From contig OZ242008.1 in assembly GCA_965204735.1 (NCBI GenBank), positions 800,001-864,000 of the forward strand: 64,000 nucleotides of DNA, written 5' to 3'. Below, piece by piece: positions 37,266 through 46,074 of this stretch. Position numbers and translations under genes: made by a program. The stretch is from Longimicrobiales bacterium (GTDB lineage Bacteria; Gemmatimonadota; Gemmatimonadetes; Longimicrobiales; Gaopeijiaceae). A model generated the notes under the pieces. That model was not told the DNA's origin and did no database searches. It saw only the letters and a program-made list of their open reading frames with translations. How positions within the stretch are numbered: the stretch's first letter is position 1; every line of letters begins with the position of its first letter.

Positions 37266-37853
37266 TCAGCCCCTTGCCAAGGCGCTGACACGTTCGACGA
37301 AGTACCGAGCCGTCGGACACTGAGGATGTTTCGCAGCCTGCACGACATCGAATCCATGTTCAGTGATCAAGCGCTTCGCAAACAGCACCTTGCTTCGTCC
37401 GCGCCTGACGGGACCAACCTCCTTCATGCGATCCCATGGCATATTGGGTGTGGCCTCCGGATGCGTTTCACAGTACGACTCGTCGTTGGTCCAGCTGCGC
37501 ATCGCCCTGGTATCTGCCAGAAACCACGATTCGATTGCCTTGCGAGCAATTACGACGAGGTCGATCGCCTCGGAATCAACTCGATTCTTGCGTTCCGTGA
37601 TGCACGGCACGGTCTCGCTGGGATCAAGGTCGGCCAGCACTACGAGTCGATCCAGATTGGCGCTTCGCTTCCTCAGCAAACTGGCCAACCCCATTCCACT
37701 TGTCGTTCCCTTCTCCAACTGCCGGTGTCCGCCAGCCACTACAACAGGGTCCACCAGCTTCAGTTCCTGCTTATCAAGCCAACGCCGAAAGGTCTCGCTT
37801 TCAACAAGCACCTTCTCCGAGTGCCCTTCGACTACGAAGCCTACTCTCACCAC
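37266..37853 (-). CDS. DUF4276/TOPRIM-like protein
   Basis: GFVVEGHSE, VVLADLD, IESWFLAD; GTG start overlaps the ATPase stop. Confidence 0.7.
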   Translation of the reverse strand: MVRVGFVVEGHSEKVLVESETFRRWLDKQELKLVDPVVVAGGHRQLEKGTTSGMGLASLLRKRSANLDRLVVLADLDPSETVPCITERKNRVDSEAIDLVVIARKAIESWFLADTRAMRSWTNDESYCETHPEATPNMPWDRMKEVGPVRRGRSKVLFAKRLITEHGFDVVQAAKHPQCPTARYFVERVSALARG

Positions 37854-38983
37854 GGCACGCCGCCATCCAGCAAGTTGGACAGCCAAGCGGCCTCCAGTCC
37901 CATGACCTGGAGGTCTGCTTGCTCGAGGTTGCCCGAGCTGGCCCGCTTCATGCGAGTTCGGCCAGCCTTCTTGTCCACTACGACCAACTCTTCGAGCCGC
38001 AGCTTTCGCACGATGGATTCGCTGTGGGTAGTGAGCCAGATCGGGTTTTCTGGGCGGGCCGAGTCTCGCAGGAATTCGACGAATTCGGCAATTGCCGCCG
38101 GATGCAGTCCGCGCTCGGGCTCTTCGATCAACGTCACGCCGGGACGGTCGCGTCCGTCCAGGACCGCTACCAGAAGGCTGAGCGCGTAGATCGTTCCGTC
38201 CGACATCAGACCTGCGGGAAACCTCCTCTTCGTGCCGCGTTCCTTGAACAAGACCGCGGTGCGTTGGTCGAGCCGCTGGCGCGTGGTTTGGATTGCGTCG
38301 ACCCCTGGAACCACCATTGCCATCCATTCGCGTATGAGTGCTTGGGCCTCCGGGTCCCCTTCGAGTCGTCCCAGTACGGCTGCCAAGTTGTTTCCCCTGC
38401 CGTTGAGCTTCGACGGGTCTGCATCGGAAGGATCCGGTTCTTTGGCCGACCTTGGGTCTACGCGGTAGATCGTGATGTTTGTAAGCAGATCTGTCAATGG
38501 ATGATTGGGACGGAACAACAGGGCGGACATCGCGGGCGGGATGTCCAGCTTCATCCCGGGTTGGAGTCCGATCCGCGCCGGTTGTCCTGGCACACGTCCG
38601 AGCACGGAGGAGCCGGCCGCAAAAAGGTTTTCTTCGATCTCGGGCGCAGTCGCTAACTCGCGGATCTGCAGGTCGTAGCTGGATGCATCGGCCGGGTTGC
38701 TTGCCACCTCGTCAAGGAGCTTGATTCCGAATGCGAAGTGCTGATTGCGCGGCGCATACAGCTTCGCCGAACGGATGTTGTCGGCGCCGCCGTGAGCTCG
38801 CAGCGCATCCTCGACGCCGTGGCGACAGACTCTGCCCACGAAGTCGAGGGCGTCGAAGAAGTTGCTCTTGCCGGAGCCGTTCGGCCCTGCGAAGACGGAG
38901 AAGGGTCGCAGACCGTCGATCCTCAGGGAGGCGATGCTCTTGTAGTTGGAGATCGTCAGGTCGAAGTGCAAGCGGTCGGCCAT
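37847..38983 (-). CDS. ABC-type AAA_21/AAA_15 ATPase
   Basis: NYKSI, GPNGSGKSN, MSDGT signature, IEEPERGLHP, TTHS. Confidence 0.9.
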   Translation of the reverse strand: MADRLHFDLTISNYKSIASLRIDGLRPFSVFAGPNGSGKSNFFDALDFVGRVCRHGVEDALRAHGGADNIRSAKLYAPRNQHFAFGIKLLDEVASNPADASSYDLQIRELATAPEIEENLFAAGSSVLGRVPGQPARIGLQPGMKLDIPPAMSALLFRPNHPLTDLLTNITIYRVDPRSAKEPDPSDADPSKLNGRGNNLAAVLGRLEGDPEAQALIREWMAMVVPGVDAIQTTRQRLDQRTAVLFKERGTKRRFPAGLMSDGTIYALSLLVAVLDGRDRPGVTLIEEPERGLHPAAIAEFVEFLRDSARPENPIWLTTHSESIVRKLRLEELVVVDKKAGRTRMKRASSGNLEQADLQVMGLEAAWLSNLLDGGVPW

Positions 38984-39009
38984 GGTTGTATGCTCGTCGG
39001 CGCCGGAAG

Positions 39010-41889: not shown

Positions 41890-42067
41890 GGCGGCTCCTC
41901 CGGCTGAATTACGGCTGCGGCAAGTTGGCCGCACGGTTGTCCTTTCGGCAAGACCCGCGTTACGTCGGTCATGCCGACGGTGCCGGTGGCCGGAGTCCCG
42001 CGGGCATGCAGCGCCAGCATGATCGTCCACGCCGCGACGCTTCAACTCCGGCAGTCCTGGCTGTCGC

Positions 42068-44710
42068 TCACAGCTCCTGCCCGTCTCCCGCACGCACGCG
42101 CGCCTGATCGAACCACATCAGCAACTTGGGGTCTTCCTGGATCACACTCTCGGGGATCTTCCTGGCTACGGCGATAATGGTGGCGTAGTCCTTCTTCTGC
42201 CAAGCCTGACGGAACCCGGCCCGCATCGCCTCCGCTCGGAACACCTTTAGCTTCCGTTCCTCCGTTTTCCTGTACTCGGCAAACTCCCGAATAAGTGCAC
42301 GCTCCCGCAACCGGATCAGATCGGCCTCCCTGTTGTGGTCGGCAACGTGCCAGACTCCCGCCTCGTCGGACAGAAAGTTCTGTTCCAGCAAGTCCGACAG
42401 TTCAACCGAGTGCTCGTGCCGGTTCCATCCAGCGAGCTCCCGTACGAACCGAGGGTGGAGGTCCTGAAACGTCTGGGGTTGATCGGAAAGGGTTTGGCGC
42501 AGCCACCGGATCGCCGACTCCTCGTCCGTGACGAATAGATCCATCTGAGCCGTGGTCCTCGGGCAATCTGCCACCAGCCGGTCGTACTCGGCCGCCTGGT
42601 CGGGCAGGAAGTACTGTCCTCCCCGTTCGGGAAAGCGTTGGCCGAGCCCGGAGTAGAACTCCGCTGATGAGATCGGGACCATCACGCCCCGTTGCACGTG
42701 AAAGGCAACCATGCGATCGAACAAGAGGTAGTTGTGACGCTCTGCAACCGCGTCCAAAGTCCCGTTCCTGACCTCAGGGAACGGCAGTTTCGCTAAGTGC
42801 ATCCGCACGAACTCCCACGCACTTCCATCGTGGCTAGCTTGCAGTCTTGTTCGGCCTTCTATCTCCTGTCGCGGCTTGTACGCAGAGATTGTCAAGTCCT
42901 GCTTGACCGTGGAGCCATAGCTTAGCTGCTTGGTGGTTCCCTTCTTCTTATCCAGCACGCGCACATCCGCGACCACGAAGCCGGCTTCGGACAGTGCCTC
43001 CTGGATAGCGACCCATACCGCATTGCGCGAATTGTGAAACTCCACTGTGATCCAGCGGCCCGGCTTGAGAACACGGTAGAATTCGCCAAATGCCCGTCGC
43101 ATCAAGCGTCGGTAGTCGACCAGGCTCTTGCCCTGGACGGCGTTGACGACGGCCTCTCGGCGGGGTTCGGTGCGGATGCCTAGCCATCCCTCAACCATCG
43201 TGTTCAGCTCGGAGTAGTTGAGGTTGCCGCCGAACGGCGGATCGGTGAAGATGTAGTCGATTGCGGCATTCGGCACGTTCCTAAGGTCCGTCGCGCTCTG
43301 TGTGCCGACTACGACGCCAGTGCTCCTAGGGCCGTCGCCGCATCTCCGCAGATCCGCTATCCGACTCCGTAGGTAGTTGGTGGCCGGAATCTCGGCGGTA
43401 AGCGGTGCGACGTAAAGTGTTCCCGACAGCGGCCCGACATGGCGGTCGTGATTCGGCATGTACCGGTTGAGGCGGCAGACGCGCTGGAGTGCGCCCGTCA
43501 GTACGAACAGACCGAGAAAGCGAGCCTCGCTGGCCGTCAGCCCTCGTATGCGATTCCAAAAGTCCGTTAGCAGAACAAGGTTGCGTCTAGTGAAGAAGTG
43601 GTGCAGGTGCGTGAAGCCGTGGGACCGCCTAGGTTGTTGTGTGTTGAAGCCGTCTGGCATGGCCACAACCGGCGGGCCGGGACGAAGCGAAGCATCGTCA
43701 AGGCGGGCGATGAGCGCGAGATCGGCGGCGTCGGGCGTCTTCTCGAAGCGTCGCTTGCCTAAGGCGTAGTTGATCAACACGGGCTGTTGCTCAGCTTGGC
43801 GCACCGGCACTGCAAGCTCCGGGTCGAATCGCGTGGTCCACAAACGTTCGAGGGTGCGGATCGAATGAAGCAATCCGCAATCGGGACAAGGTGCTTCGCT
43901 CGGCGTTTTCTGCTTGGGACCACGGAACACCAAATCCCAGTACACGATTCTGTGACCGCACGTGGGGCACAGAAACACATCGGCCCACACTATGTACTGT
44001 ATGTATCCTTGGTGCCGACCCTGGTGTGAGTCGCCTTCCGCGTTGACTCGCTTGATGGCGTCGTTTGTGCCGCGGGGCCAGCCCACATGGGCCGTGCGTA
44101 GCAGGTCGCCGTGTTCATGAGCCACTGCGGTGACAACCTCGTCAATTTCGTCGAGATGCTCGGCTAGTGCGCCGATGGCGTTCATGCCCGCCGTAATGAA
44201 CGTAGCAGCCGGGCTCAGGTCGCTGAGGACAGCCCGTCGAGCACCGTCGCCTTCCCTGGCGCACAGTTGGGCGGCCACGCCTGTCATGCCGGTTCCGCAG
44301 AAGCCGTCCAGGACCACCTCGCCTGGTTCAGTGAAGTGCAGTATGTATGGTACGATAGCCCGCGGCGGCACCTTGGTACTGTAGTAGTGGGCAAAGTACA
44401 GCGGATCGTTCTTGCCTACCGAGACATCCGCCGCGAAGGCAGCAACATCCGTGGCTTCGTCGGCGAAAGTGTGTTCCCTGATGCCACCGCCGGCGAACGT
44501 CTCGTCTCCCACGAACGGACTTGGACATGCCGTATAGTAGGGGGGCAAGGAAATGTCCAACACTCGGTCGGTGTTCGCAACCGGGGCACCTTCGATATCG
44601 AGCATCCCCGGCAGTTCGGCGGCTAGGCGCTGCCGCCCCTCCGCGGAGACAAGGCGTGGCCTCTCGGCAGCCAGGCTTCCGCTCGCACCGTCAAAAAGCG
44701 TCGTGGCCAA
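42068..44710 (-). CDS. Large amino-DNA methyltransferase resembling BREX-3 PglXI
   Basis: PPYYTACP, FAADVSVGKNDP...TKVP, DGFCGTG (motif I), CPTC/CPDC, TDPPF (motif IV), LKPGRWITVEFHN, C-terminal QEDPKLLMWFDQA; TTG start. Confidence 0.85.
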   Translation of the reverse strand: MATTLFDGASGSLAAERPRLVSAEGRQRLAAELPGMLDIEGAPVANTDRVLDISLPPYYTACPSPFVGDETFAGGGIREHTFADEATDVAAFAADVSVGKNDPLYFAHYYSTKVPPRAIVPYILHFTEPGEVVLDGFCGTGMTGVAAQLCAREGDGARRAVLSDLSPAATFITAGMNAIGALAEHLDEIDEVVTAVAHEHGDLLRTAHVGWPRGTNDAIKRVNAEGDSHQGRHQGYIQYIVWADVFLCPTCGHRIVYWDLVFRGPKQKTPSEAPCPDCGLLHSIRTLERLWTTRFDPELAVPVRQAEQQPVLINYALGKRRFEKTPDAADLALIARLDDASLRPGPPVVAMPDGFNTQQPRRSHGFTHLHHFFTRRNLVLLTDFWNRIRGLTASEARFLGLFVLTGALQRVCRLNRYMPNHDRHVGPLSGTLYVAPLTAEIPATNYLRSRIADLRRCGDGPRSTGVVVGTQSATDLRNVPNAAIDYIFTDPPFGGNLNYSELNTMVEGWLGIRTEPRREAVVNAVQGKSLVDYRRLMRRAFGEFYRVLKPGRWITVEFHNSRNAVWVAIQEALSEAGFVVADVRVLDKKKGTTKQLSYGSTVKQDLTISAYKPRQEIEGRTRLQASHDGSAWEFVRMHLAKLPFPEVRNGTLDAVAERHNYLLFDRMVAFHVQRGVMVPISSAEFYSGLGQRFPERGGQYFLPDQAAEYDRLVADCPRTTAQMDLFVTDEESAIRWLRQTLSDQPQTFQDLHPRFVRELAGWNRHEHSVELSDLLEQNFLSDEAGVWHVADHNREADLIRLRERALIREFAEYRKTEERKLKVFRAEAMRAGFRQAWQKKDYATIIAVARKIPESVIQEDPKLLMWFDQARVRAGDGQEL

Positions 44711-44716
44711 GCCGAG

Positions 44717-45736
44717 TCAGCCTTCCTCTTTCAAGAATCGAGCTACCAAGGGAAGCATCCTCTTCAACGTACTGCTTCCACCACCTCCACCACGCCTCGT
44801 CCCACCTAAATTGGGCGGCAATATTCCGCGCAACACGGCATAGTCGTACTGATCGCTTTGGCTTGTGGCGTAGTTGTTAAGATGGCTAATCCAGTCCTCC
44901 AGGATCTCGCCTTCAGGTTGGTAGATTTGGCTGCTTTGCATAGAATCCAGCTGGTTGTCCAGAAAGCCTATGTGCTCGCCGTTACCGCGCAAGAATTGTT
45001 GTGCAGCATAGTAGCATTGGCGGAAATGCCCGGTAAGGTTCTGGTGGCCGATGTTTTGGCAGCGCTCATGCAGAGTCCACGCACCGGCAAGTGTCTTGTT
45101 GCCAACCAACCACTTGTCAAACGCATAGATGTCGGGTATGTCCTGGGGTTCGGTTGTTTTCTGTCCGTAACCCAGCAAGTCGTCCAGCTCCCGTTGCACG
45201 TCGGCGAGGCCATGCAAGTCGGATACATCCTTCTCGTGTTCACTGATTTTTGCGCTGTGCTTGGATACCCATTCTCTCAACAGATGCAACTCCAGCGACT
45301 TCCCGTTCTTGTCAGCCTCGGCCTTGACGATCTCGGTCGCAGCAAGAGTTTCGTCCTCGGTAAGCTCCAGCATCAGTTCAAAGTTCTTGTCGAAGCCTGC
45401 GGACGACAGGTTGGCAGAGCCGACCAAGCCCGAGATGCAGTCGGCAAGATACGCCTTGGCGTGCACTCGCTGATGGACGACCAGGCGGATAGCGTGATCA
45501 TCTTCCTGCAACGGCATCAAGCACTTCACCAGATCATGGGGGCTCGAGAGTCCTGTGGCCCACTCGGACGGGCTGATTCGGCTCATGAACGTAAGAGTGA
45601 CGCCGGACGGAAGTGCCTTGGACAGTCGAGTCAATCCCTGCGAACTATAGAATGGAACGCACACCAGGAGCTGCTCCTGGCTCGCACCCACAACCCTGTC
45701 AAGGGTGCCCCACGTTGCTCGAATCACCTTCGCCAC
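44717..45736 (-). CDS. PLD-family (single HKD) nuclease with unrecognised C-terminal domain
   Basis: VPFYS, HAKAYLAD (HxKxxxxD), GSANLS, NFE; visibly lower GC than the backbone. Confidence 0.85.
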   Translation of the reverse strand: MAKVIRATWGTLDRVVGASQEQLLVCVPFYSSQGLTRLSKALPSGVTLTFMSRISPSEWATGLSSPHDLVKCLMPLQEDDHAIRLVVHQRVHAKAYLADCISGLVGSANLSSAGFDKNFELMLELTEDETLAATEIVKAEADKNGKSLELHLLREWVSKHSAKISEHEKDVSDLHGLADVQRELDDLLGYGQKTTEPQDIPDIYAFDKWLVGNKTLAGAWTLHERCQNIGHQNLTGHFRQCYYAAQQFLRGNGEHIGFLDNQLDSMQSSQIYQPEGEILEDWISHLNNYATSQSDQYDYAVLRGILPPNLGGTRRGGGGGSSTLKRMLPLVARFLKEEG

Positions 45737-45844
45737 TTCACACTCCGAGTTTGTTGCGGAACCGCGGATCGACTCCGCGGCGAACCGAAAGGTAGCCTCC
45801 TCCCCCCGTTAGCTGCAAGCTCGCCGTCCAGGGCGACATCGACT

Positions 45845-46074
45845 CCACCAGCGTCCGCACCGGGTGCTCGACGCGGCTCGGGTCCCGGTCTTCGCGAAAG
45901 ACGGCGACCTGGTCGAAGCAATCTCCCGCCTGACGCAGGGACAGTGCGCCGGCGTTGGACGACGGCCCCACCGTTGAAGGCGGCGAGGCTTGCTTGGAGA
46001 AGAGGAGTTGGGTACCCTATGTTGGTAGCGAGTAAGAGAGGCCGATTGCCCGCCCCCGCTCGTGAGAAACTGGG
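45845..46074 (-). pseudogene. IS1380-family remnant (left end plus frameshifted transposase N-terminus)
   Basis: CTAG|CCCAGTTTCTCAC end-like sequence, then AAFNGGAV / SNAGALSLRQA...DRDPSRVEHPVRTLV. Confidence 0.6.

Follow-up and report, generated by a model that had tools for sequence, protein, structure and literature searches.

The window, i.e., the whole 64 kb stretch of DNA analyzed here, carries a nuclease gene followed after 6 nt by a methyltransferase gene. Both ORFs are whole and lie on the minus strand (Table 1), and the pair announced by the original prediction is real. Its arrangement is not an assembly artefact since contigs from two other runs (X6 and X10) cover positions 39009 to ~45800 unbroken, with ~97.5-98.5% identity. 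As also predicted, the two genes have a low GC content (0.554 and 0.612, compared to window and genome values of 0.685 and 0.693) and form a two-gene insert with unrelated host genes on either side. In four relatives devoid of the cassette, these flanking genes join directly (gaps of 445-787 nt compared to ~4.7 kb here), and the nuclease-methylase pair is a recent insertion. The repeat that marks its left edge has five further copies in the genome (87-89% identity). The transposase remnant, which presumably belongs to the IS1380 family, shows 80-81% nucleotide identity to two other places of the genome; the copy at C1:1.252 Mb encodes PF13701 DDE_Tnp_1_4 (1.7e-45), and the window copy is interrupted by a stop. 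Neither terminal inverted repeats nor a target duplication were found around the insertion. The pair looks like a small mobile restriction-modification-like module, and the cassette remains intact at this displaced site in several strains.

Table 1. Features of the insertion and their positions in the window
Feature	Position	Strand	Remarks
Nuclease gene, 339 aa	45736-44717 (44717..45736)	minus	GTG start; ORF intact
PLD/HKD domain (~residues 1-165), then helical linker, then helical C-domain (196-339)	within 44717..45736	minus	
C-domain, family-less	44720..45151	minus	conserved GH, LGG-x3-GGGG, R326
Methyltransferase gene, 880 aa	44710-42068 (42068..44710)	minus	TTG start; ORF intact
PglXI/BrxXI-family alpha-class amino-methyltransferase, nuclease-linked "B" clade	42068..44710	minus	hairpin RYMPNHDRHVGP at 416
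Decayed DDE transposase gene, 5' end	45820..46028	minus	directly upstream of nuclease
76-nt dispersed repeat	41964..42039	.	just downstream of methylase; left edge of insertion

Domains of the nuclease and clade of the methylase

The nuclease, a 339-aa protein without helicase domain, has a whole catalytic motif (H92-K94-D99, G106-S107-N109, E120) and a predicted structure of high confidence (pLDDT 94.5). Its PLD domain matches PF13091 (32.2 bits, cut-off 27). The assignment to PLD nucleases was borne out by the fold of the N-domain, which matches SauUSI (the top match), Nuc, NgoAVII R and BfiI at Z 13-15 over residues 1-165. The protein thus combines two BfiI-type features, an intact HxKx4D...GSxN motif and a PLD fold; searched whole against the ESM Atlas, it gave generic PLD clusters only.

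The C-domain, preceded by a helical linker, has an all-helical model (pLDDT 96.3). It had been described as an unrecognised domain of ~170 aa: unrecognised it is, but its size is ~145 aa (196-339). It matches no family in Pfam, PADLOC or NCBIfam, and no glycosylase or repair family or fold. A fold search among 48,161 chains gave nothing at Z ≥ 5 (best Z 4.6, MCM8 N-domain), and no wH, SRA or PUA fold is in its list, an absence that does not exclude one. Likewise, Foldseek gave no significant match (best E 5), the best E of a PDB sequence-profile search was 0.14 and the ESM Atlas gave no usable match. The Gly loop-helix may resemble helix-hairpin-helix motifs. The C-domain also exists as stand-alone genes of 136-152 aa, found without any nuclease at four loci (L107, L154, L155 and L156), with no methylase in view at L107. 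A stand-alone C-domain query matched 3 of 72,556 plasmid records and no phage, and the window C-domain had no plasmid match.

The proposed PglXI assignment of the methylase was confirmed by a full-length HMM match to PADLOC PDLC02541 (2e-301, 1000 bits, best stretch residues 35-782). All the expected motifs are present: motif I (DGFCGTG, 135), two CxxC (CPTC, 248; CPDC, 275) and DPPF (490). The architecture (motif I, insert TRD with a four-Cys finger, motif IV, long C-terminal region) is the PglXI/BrxXI layout given in section 26 of PMC12839542. The genome also encodes a resident PglXI, 43% identical to the window methylase. The predicted target-reading hairpin of PglXI-B, which may resemble the recognition hairpin of Dam, is invariant across three phyla, and residues 346-465 share 65% identity across phyla (33 pairs) compared to 37% for resident PglXI (21 pairs). 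The same hairpin was found in 97 of the best 120 database matches to the methylase; 21 of these 97 are on contigs of identical size to nuclease-match contigs, compared to none of the 23 hairpin-less matches. It is also present in Bacillus-group PglXI. Among 401 Anaerolineae-class genomes, PglXI-B was found in the starting genome only, and the 10 others with PglXI have no nuclease within 1.5 kb of it.

Partner methylases and relation to BREX type 3

The alignment scan comprised 78 loci, and 59 loci matching the PLD part alone were excluded from all counts; a single-protein locus scan of genome contigs found nothing. A methylase adjoins the nuclease or lies two genes away in 23 of the 24 fetched loci with PLD and C-domain, the contig of the 24th stopping ~430 nt downstream. 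These methylases are PglXI-B (n = 11), type III Mod (n = 6) or beta-class SPPY (n = 6), counts that overstate independence since many loci come from related hosts or one habitat. The three partner classes each form a narrow clade and have only catalytic motifs in common. The tree (16 rows) implies that the partner changed at least three times; a 99/97 branch has Mod as well as beta partners on either side. All six nuclease-linked Mods, which have two different backbones, share one TRD family, missing from five control Mods of the same backbone. This TRD family occurs without nearby C-domain at five loci (L150-L153 and L157) and matched 4 of the 72,556 plasmid records, two of them also retrieved with the stand-alone C-domain. 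None of the six loci of beta-class pairs gave a match to BREX-3 genes, and the beta-class methylase had generic 31-34% plasmid matches only. Recruitment of the nuclease through the methylase C-terminus, one of the two mechanisms originally proposed, is disfavoured, because sequence identity there is no higher inside the nuclease-linked clade (57%) than between clades (58%) and the other partners share catalytic motifs only.

As predicted, brxF, brxC, brxHII, pglZ and brxA have no match in the window (tblastn, E ≤ 1e-3). The pair recurs at 11 other loci. However, it is not normally free of BREX: of the other PglXI-B pairs, all 10 that come with flanking DNA belong to or adjoin BREX-3 loci, and a brxF-brxC-pglXI...pglZ-brxA cluster is present on the same chromosome (C1:118.8-136.8 kb), ~720 kb from the window pair. 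Stand-alone placement is therefore the exception, observed only here, and the pair was not found in any complete genome lacking brxC. This genome gave no full-length BrxHII match (best 341 bits, partial, in a 1243-aa frame, compared to 1380 bits for true BrxHII), a protein found in 77% of type 3 taxa according to PMC12839542. Homologues restricted to BREX-3 loci had been expected to mark a deletion remnant; the restriction is nearly complete, but the plain remnant reading was rejected since the pair comes in addition to a second, ordinary PglXI (8 of the 10 pairs with flanks), runs opposite to the BREX genes in three relatives, and has a nuclease whose family also pairs with unrelated methylases. 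The nuclease is broken and the methylase whole in four of 11 PglXI-B pairs (two via in-frame deletion); at L020, the methylase is split and the nuclease whole. At L024, the C-termini of both methylases are 85% identical. At L016, the last 600 nt of both methylase genes are 97-100% identical, which could be an assembly collapse.

Candidate functions of the pair

We consider it somewhat more likely than not that the protein is a BfiI-like restriction nuclease without motor, coupled to any methylase that marks the same DNA site. Judging from fold and motif, its PLD domains would dimerise into one metal-independent active site. Its helical C-domain would read a short DNA site, which PglXI-B, a clade of fixed specificity, would methylate to protect the host. 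The link between both proteins would be this site and not a protein contact, so that the nuclease family could take a type III Mod or a beta-class methylase as partner instead; the adjacent methylase is presumably cognate to the nuclease in 23 of the 24 loci. The cassette would usually provide a second layer of specificity within BREX-3 loci, its entry or retention there probably resulting from recombination via the shared pglXI 3' end, and in this species would have moved elsewhere, to a variable site. This reading is favoured by the methylases at 23 of the 24 loci, the narrow partner clades, the partner changes in the tree, the two shared plasmid records, the beta-class pairs without BREX-3 match and the broken nucleases beside whole methylases. 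The BREX-3 setting of the 10 flanked pairs, the TRD loci without C-domain, the hairpin in Bacillus-group PglXI and the split methylase of L020 count against it. In addition, marking by type III Mod and BREX-like methylases is confined to one strand, which would be a poor guard against a motor-free nuclease, although MmeI lives with one-strand marking (PMC2582602). The related methylases PglX (PMC11341690) and MtsC of MANTIS (10.64898/2026.09.23.753747) are described as not working alone, and the window methylase may need BrxC/BrxF, present in trans. A k-mer avoidance test, in which 30 cassette genes were compared to synonymous shuffles, called no site; the depleted words are mostly depleted in eight control PglXI genes too.

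Stand-alone C-domains without nuclease need an explanation beyond a motor-free restriction nuclease. Tentatively, the 145-aa helical domain could be a new fold of methylation-sensitive, sequence-specific DNA reader for one-strand-methylating systems (BREX-3, type III, DUF499 BREX-related). As a PLD fusion, it would form a motor-free restriction layer borrowing an existing mark and, alone, a site-blocking or regulatory reader; here, a BREX methylase would have become part of a self-sufficient two-gene system, methylating without BrxC.

It is possible, although we doubt it, that the pair is a BREX-3 accessory, in which BrxC/BrxF would load PglXI-B as a second specificity subunit and the resulting complex would trigger the PLD protein, an auxiliary effector perhaps in place of BrxHII, with the window copy acting in trans or being a stranded orphan. 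The 10 of 10 flanked pairs at BREX-3 and the brxF, brxC, pglZ and brxA of this genome agree with such a role, as do the methylase ends at L016 and L024, alike as if matched to the resident machine. Furthermore, full-length BrxHII (PDLC02500) has no match in this genome (G000) or in seven of eight other pair-bearing genomes (one fragmentary), and the three Spirochaetia loci with BrxHII all carry a broken nuclease. However, L020 combines BrxHII with a whole nuclease, the nuclease of L014, a locus devoid of BrxHII, is frameshifted, and intact cassettes are kept at the displaced site; the 3' identity could reflect plain recombination or, at L016, the collapse mentioned above. Moreover, the nuclease family accompanies type III Mod/Res as well as beta-class methylases that have neither an ATPase nor a BREX gene close by.

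An improbable variant, by analogy with PrrC inside a type I locus, is that the C-domain would watch the methylase or its mark and that a phage inhibitor blocking methylation would release a non-specific PLD nuclease, causing abortive infection. Nesting inside type III, BREX-3 and DUF499 operons, the strict tie to given TRD families and the frequency of auxiliary nucleases in BREX loci (section 35 of PMC12839542) would suit such a guard, but stand-alone C-domains have no effector to release, and a single protein surface cannot be watched because the three partner classes share only catalytic motifs; were the trigger a lost DNA mark, the guard would merge with the motor-free nuclease favoured above. 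It is very unlikely that the protein is a modification-dependent (type IV) nuclease merely clustering with methylases in defence islands. Some PLD domains are indeed fused to modification readers (SauUSI is the top N-domain fold match), PLD-wH enzymes are known (PMC11037411) and the insertions concern several kinds of loci, but wH fusions are reported there without neighbouring methylase in 87% of cases, whereas 23 of 24 loci have one here. The partner methylases also always come from narrow TRD clades, and the fold matches listed for the C-domain include no wH, SRA or PUA. Just as little credit goes to a repair or housekeeping partner, comparable to Vsr serving Dcm, whose C-domain would recognise a methylation by-product (a damaged or mispaired base) and whose PLD domain would nick or clean the end: stand-alone C-domain genes do adjoin methylases and the invariant His, Arg and Gly loop might have a catalytic role, but no glycosylase or repair match was obtained, and frequent nuclease loss with the methylase kept fits a costly toxin equally.

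Comparison with known systems

The pair had been presented as undescribed, and the literature searched indeed contains no description of it, although the supplementary neighbourhood tables of PMC12839542, outside the search, may list such loci. According to that paper, BrxL (type 1) and the type-2 BR helicase are the main carriers of HKD nucleases, and the first parts of its sections 25 and 35 do not mention a duplicate BrxXI. PMC7988955 concerns type 2 BREX and PMC7303418 does not give the BREX type; neither served as evidence here. The papers searched give no methylation motif for any PglXI. BREX type 3 is little studied, and the pair offers a small test system for the PglXI target and the need for BrxC. 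The nuclease family is of interest for a DNA-recognition fold that is probably new, and possibly for a new metal-independent restriction specificity. One nuclease recruiting three unrelated methylase classes would show how restriction modules nest in larger defence systems and borrow from them.

DISARM DrmC, DpdK and ZacB give weak HMM matches on the PLD domain, but far below cut-offs (32.9 compared to 133 bits; 20 compared to 100) and over residues 5-166 only, and no partner gene of these systems is at the locus. BfiI/BmrI and NgoFVII-type enzymes (PMC4081073) are closer: one HKD per chain, ~340-360 aa, a PLD N-domain plus a C-domain, an adjacent amino-methylase and no motor. However, BfiI (2c1l; Z 13.0, rmsd 2.8, 150 aligned) aligns to residues 1-165 only, and its C-domain is a B3 pseudobarrel, whereas the C-domain here is all-helical, without fold match or B3-like beta-barrel. 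Furthermore, the partner here is a BREX-type PglXI and the family swaps among three methylase classes. The methylase shares with BrxXI/PglXI of BREX type 3, as outlined in PMC12839542, the alpha class, the 250-aa insert TRD, the four-Cys finger and the helical C-terminus, but here an HKD nuclease of its own accompanies a second, fixed-TRD PglXI, at a locus without brxF, brxC, pglZ, brxA or BrxHII. MANTIS (Gao_RL, type-2 BREX-related), as far as presented in 10.64898/2026.09.23.753747, likewise combines an alpha-class methylase with a central TRD and a PLD nuclease acting on unmethylated DNA, but its PLD is fused to a helicase, it also comprises an AAA+ loader and a co-regulator, and its methylase picks the target. 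The two-gene insert encodes neither a PLD-SF2 helicase fusion nor a DUF499 ATPase, and its nuclease has no helicase, carries its own conserved C-domain and is not bound to one methylase fold.

The nuclease-methylase cassette and its insertion site

The predicted two-ORF arrangement proved correct: on the minus strand, the nuclease gene comes first and is separated by a 6-nt gap from the methylase gene, with catalytic motifs intact. The low GC content was also confirmed (0.55 for the nuclease and 0.61 for the methylase versus 0.69 for the genome), and the cassette and its left flank lie on single contigs in two other runs. Clusters at 90% contain 11 nucleases and 10 methylases. Nine matched pairs show a mean residue divergence of 4.4% for the nuclease and 1.3% for the methylase, without any change in the methylase catalytic region or at invariant nuclease positions.

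In a family search of 151 genomes, the cassette-flanking genes follow each other at a distance of 445-787 nt in four genomes (G906, G882, G250 and G080), and in the congeners G885 and G854 the intervening stretch is other DNA, 1.4 and 2.5 kb long; in G250 and G882 the pair is located elsewhere. Furthermore, a decayed transposase start lies upstream of the cassette and a dispersed 76-nt repeat downstream. We conclude that the pair is mobile and has inserted at a variable site. Three kb away, two genes of lower GC appear to form a second small defence insertion.

The pair recurs: the nuclease is directly ahead of a methylase of the nuclease-linked PglXI clade (PglXI-B) in 11 other loci, and the loci found are labelled Longimicrobiales, Chloroflexota and Spirochaetia. 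Ten of these pairs are in or beside BREX-3 genes, the remaining contig being just 3.3 kb long. A separate resident PglXI (PglXI-A) accompanies eight of the ten, PglXI-B being the sole PglXI seen in L017 and L031; in L012-L014, pair and BREX genes are on opposite strands. The stand-alone placement originally predicted thus holds for the window but for none of the ten others, making the window the only free-standing pair among the 11 with context. In 4 of 11 PglXI-B pairs, a frameshift or internal deletion disrupts the nuclease gene and the methylase is whole; L020 shows the converse (methylase split), and frameshifts run all through L031, where they are probably read errors. Locus L013 also carries CBASS-like genes.

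Coordinates of the cassette and of other features mentioned in the text
Feature	Position	Strand	Content
Nuclease	window 44717-45736	-	339 aa
Methylase	window 42068-44710	-	880 aa
C-domain	nuclease residues 196-339		~145 aa
Putative target-recognition region	PglXI residues 346-465
Second insertion	window 37266-38983	-	ABC-ATPase (PADLOC HEC-01A, 6.6e-123), then DUF4276-like gene
CBASS-like genes	L013:13683-16885		patatin, DncV-like nucleotidyltransferase, SEC-C protein; nested in BREX-3 beside the pair
Resident BREX-3 (L009, L010)	G000 C1:118.8-136.8 kb		probable transposase and cargo between pglXI and pglZ
Distant PglXI-like methylase	G000 C1:940 kb		adjoins helicase at 944 kb
C-terminal extension	L025 family, residues 255-449		190 aa

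The PglXI-B clade

An HMM match (PADLOC PDLC02541) bore out the PglXI assignment of the methylase. The source genome (G000) encodes a second PglXI, 43% identical and about 720 kb away, within a brxF-brxC-pglXI...pglZ-brxA locus; full-length BrxHII was not found with this resident BREX-3 when G000 was searched. Its cargo includes Schlafen-AlbA_2/HATPase and DUF2335 genes.

Among 10 PglXI-B and 8 PglXI-A proteins, cross-phylum identity over the putative target-recognition region is 65% for B-B, 37% for A-A and 26% for A-B comparisons, and the C-terminal 260 residues are 57-58% identical whichever of these pairings is taken. At the sequence level, this alignment shows B as a clade set by its target-recognition region. 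The loop RYMPxHDRHxGP occurs in 97 of the best 120 database matches. The A and B genes of L016 are 97-100% identical over their last 600 nt and the A and B C-termini of L024 are 85% identical, pointing to recombination between these paralogues.

Many SNF2 helicases of 1200-1700 aa, relatives of BrxHII/DrmD, are also encoded at eight places in G000, along with three distant PglXI-like methylases, one adjoining a helicase; these may be further methylation-based systems. The genome of L021 (G402) carries four PglXI-like genes, three inside 30 kb.

The nuclease family and its partners

The nuclease family comprises 121 clusters (E<=1e-30; 1.84 billion representatives searched). Pfam and fold matches identify its N-domain as PLD. 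The C-domain, confidently modelled as seven helices, is indeed unrecognised, with no match in Pfam, PADLOC, NCBIfam, Foldseek, VIA, PDB profile or ESM Atlas searches. In 24 fetched two-domain loci, the partners are PglXI-B (n = 11), type III Mod (n = 6) and beta-class SPPY methylases (n = 6), the last contig stopping just downstream of the nuclease. These three classes are alignable at catalytic motifs only, and loci of the beta-class pairs gave no BREX gene match. All six nuclease-linked Mods, across two backbones, share one TRD family (41-80% to L022) that is absent from five control Mods of the same backbone; five loci have this TRD without any C-domain. A tree of 16 intact nucleases, window included (8 of the 24 loci were excluded because they were broken, partial, near-duplicate or retrieved at a later stage), requires at least three partner changes.

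Other members of the PLD subfamily (P0204, P0218, P0220, P0221 and P0202) have different C-terminal domains without Pfam match, possibly further recognition-domain swaps. The beta-class partners of the L025 family carry a C-terminal extension without Pfam/NCBIfam match.

The C-domain is also found as a gene of its own. Among 72,556 plasmid records, the Mod TRD was found in four and the stand-alone C-domain in three; two are common to both searches and have the C-domain gene and mod in divergent orientation, and in the third the C-domain gene is last in a DUF499-methylase-SNF2 operon. A viral copy lies near DUF488 genes, with no methylase seen around it. The main cargo of the 10-kb plasmid NZ_CP029726.1 (L156) is a type III mod/res pair plus a stand-alone C-domain gene. 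In the 382-aa protein P0201, the C-domain is N-terminal and the rest has no Pfam match.

Proposed mechanism and comparison with known systems

Our data establish the anatomy, intactness and mobility of the cassette, linkage to narrow TRD clades and partner switching. Most simply, the C-domain would read a DNA site that serves as common currency between nuclease and methylases, because the partners share no surface yet each fixes its target domain. A PLD dimer would then cut as BfiI does, an enzyme described as having a single active centre and binding two sites (PMC4081073). PglXI-B may depend on BrxC for methylation; PglX (PMC11341690) and MANTIS MtsC (10.64898/2026.09.23.753747) are both described as inactive alone. 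Were the mark confined to one strand, a nuclease without a motor would be risky, a possible reason why it decays so often; MmeI is described as an example that systems of this kind can exist (PMC2582602).

A literature search that covered text of a 2026 BREX survey (PMC12839542) found no account of the pair or of the C-domain; this survey places HKD nucleases among auxiliary effectors, mainly on BrxL and type-2 BR helicase. The pair is real and apparently undescribed. A stronger finding than the putative minimal stand-alone system is a partner-swapping nuclease family with an unrecognised candidate reader domain. Although the methylase is PglXI, the window locus does not qualify as BREX-3; the pair may be likened to BfiI-type type II enzymes in its working mode but differs from them in its putative recognition fold.
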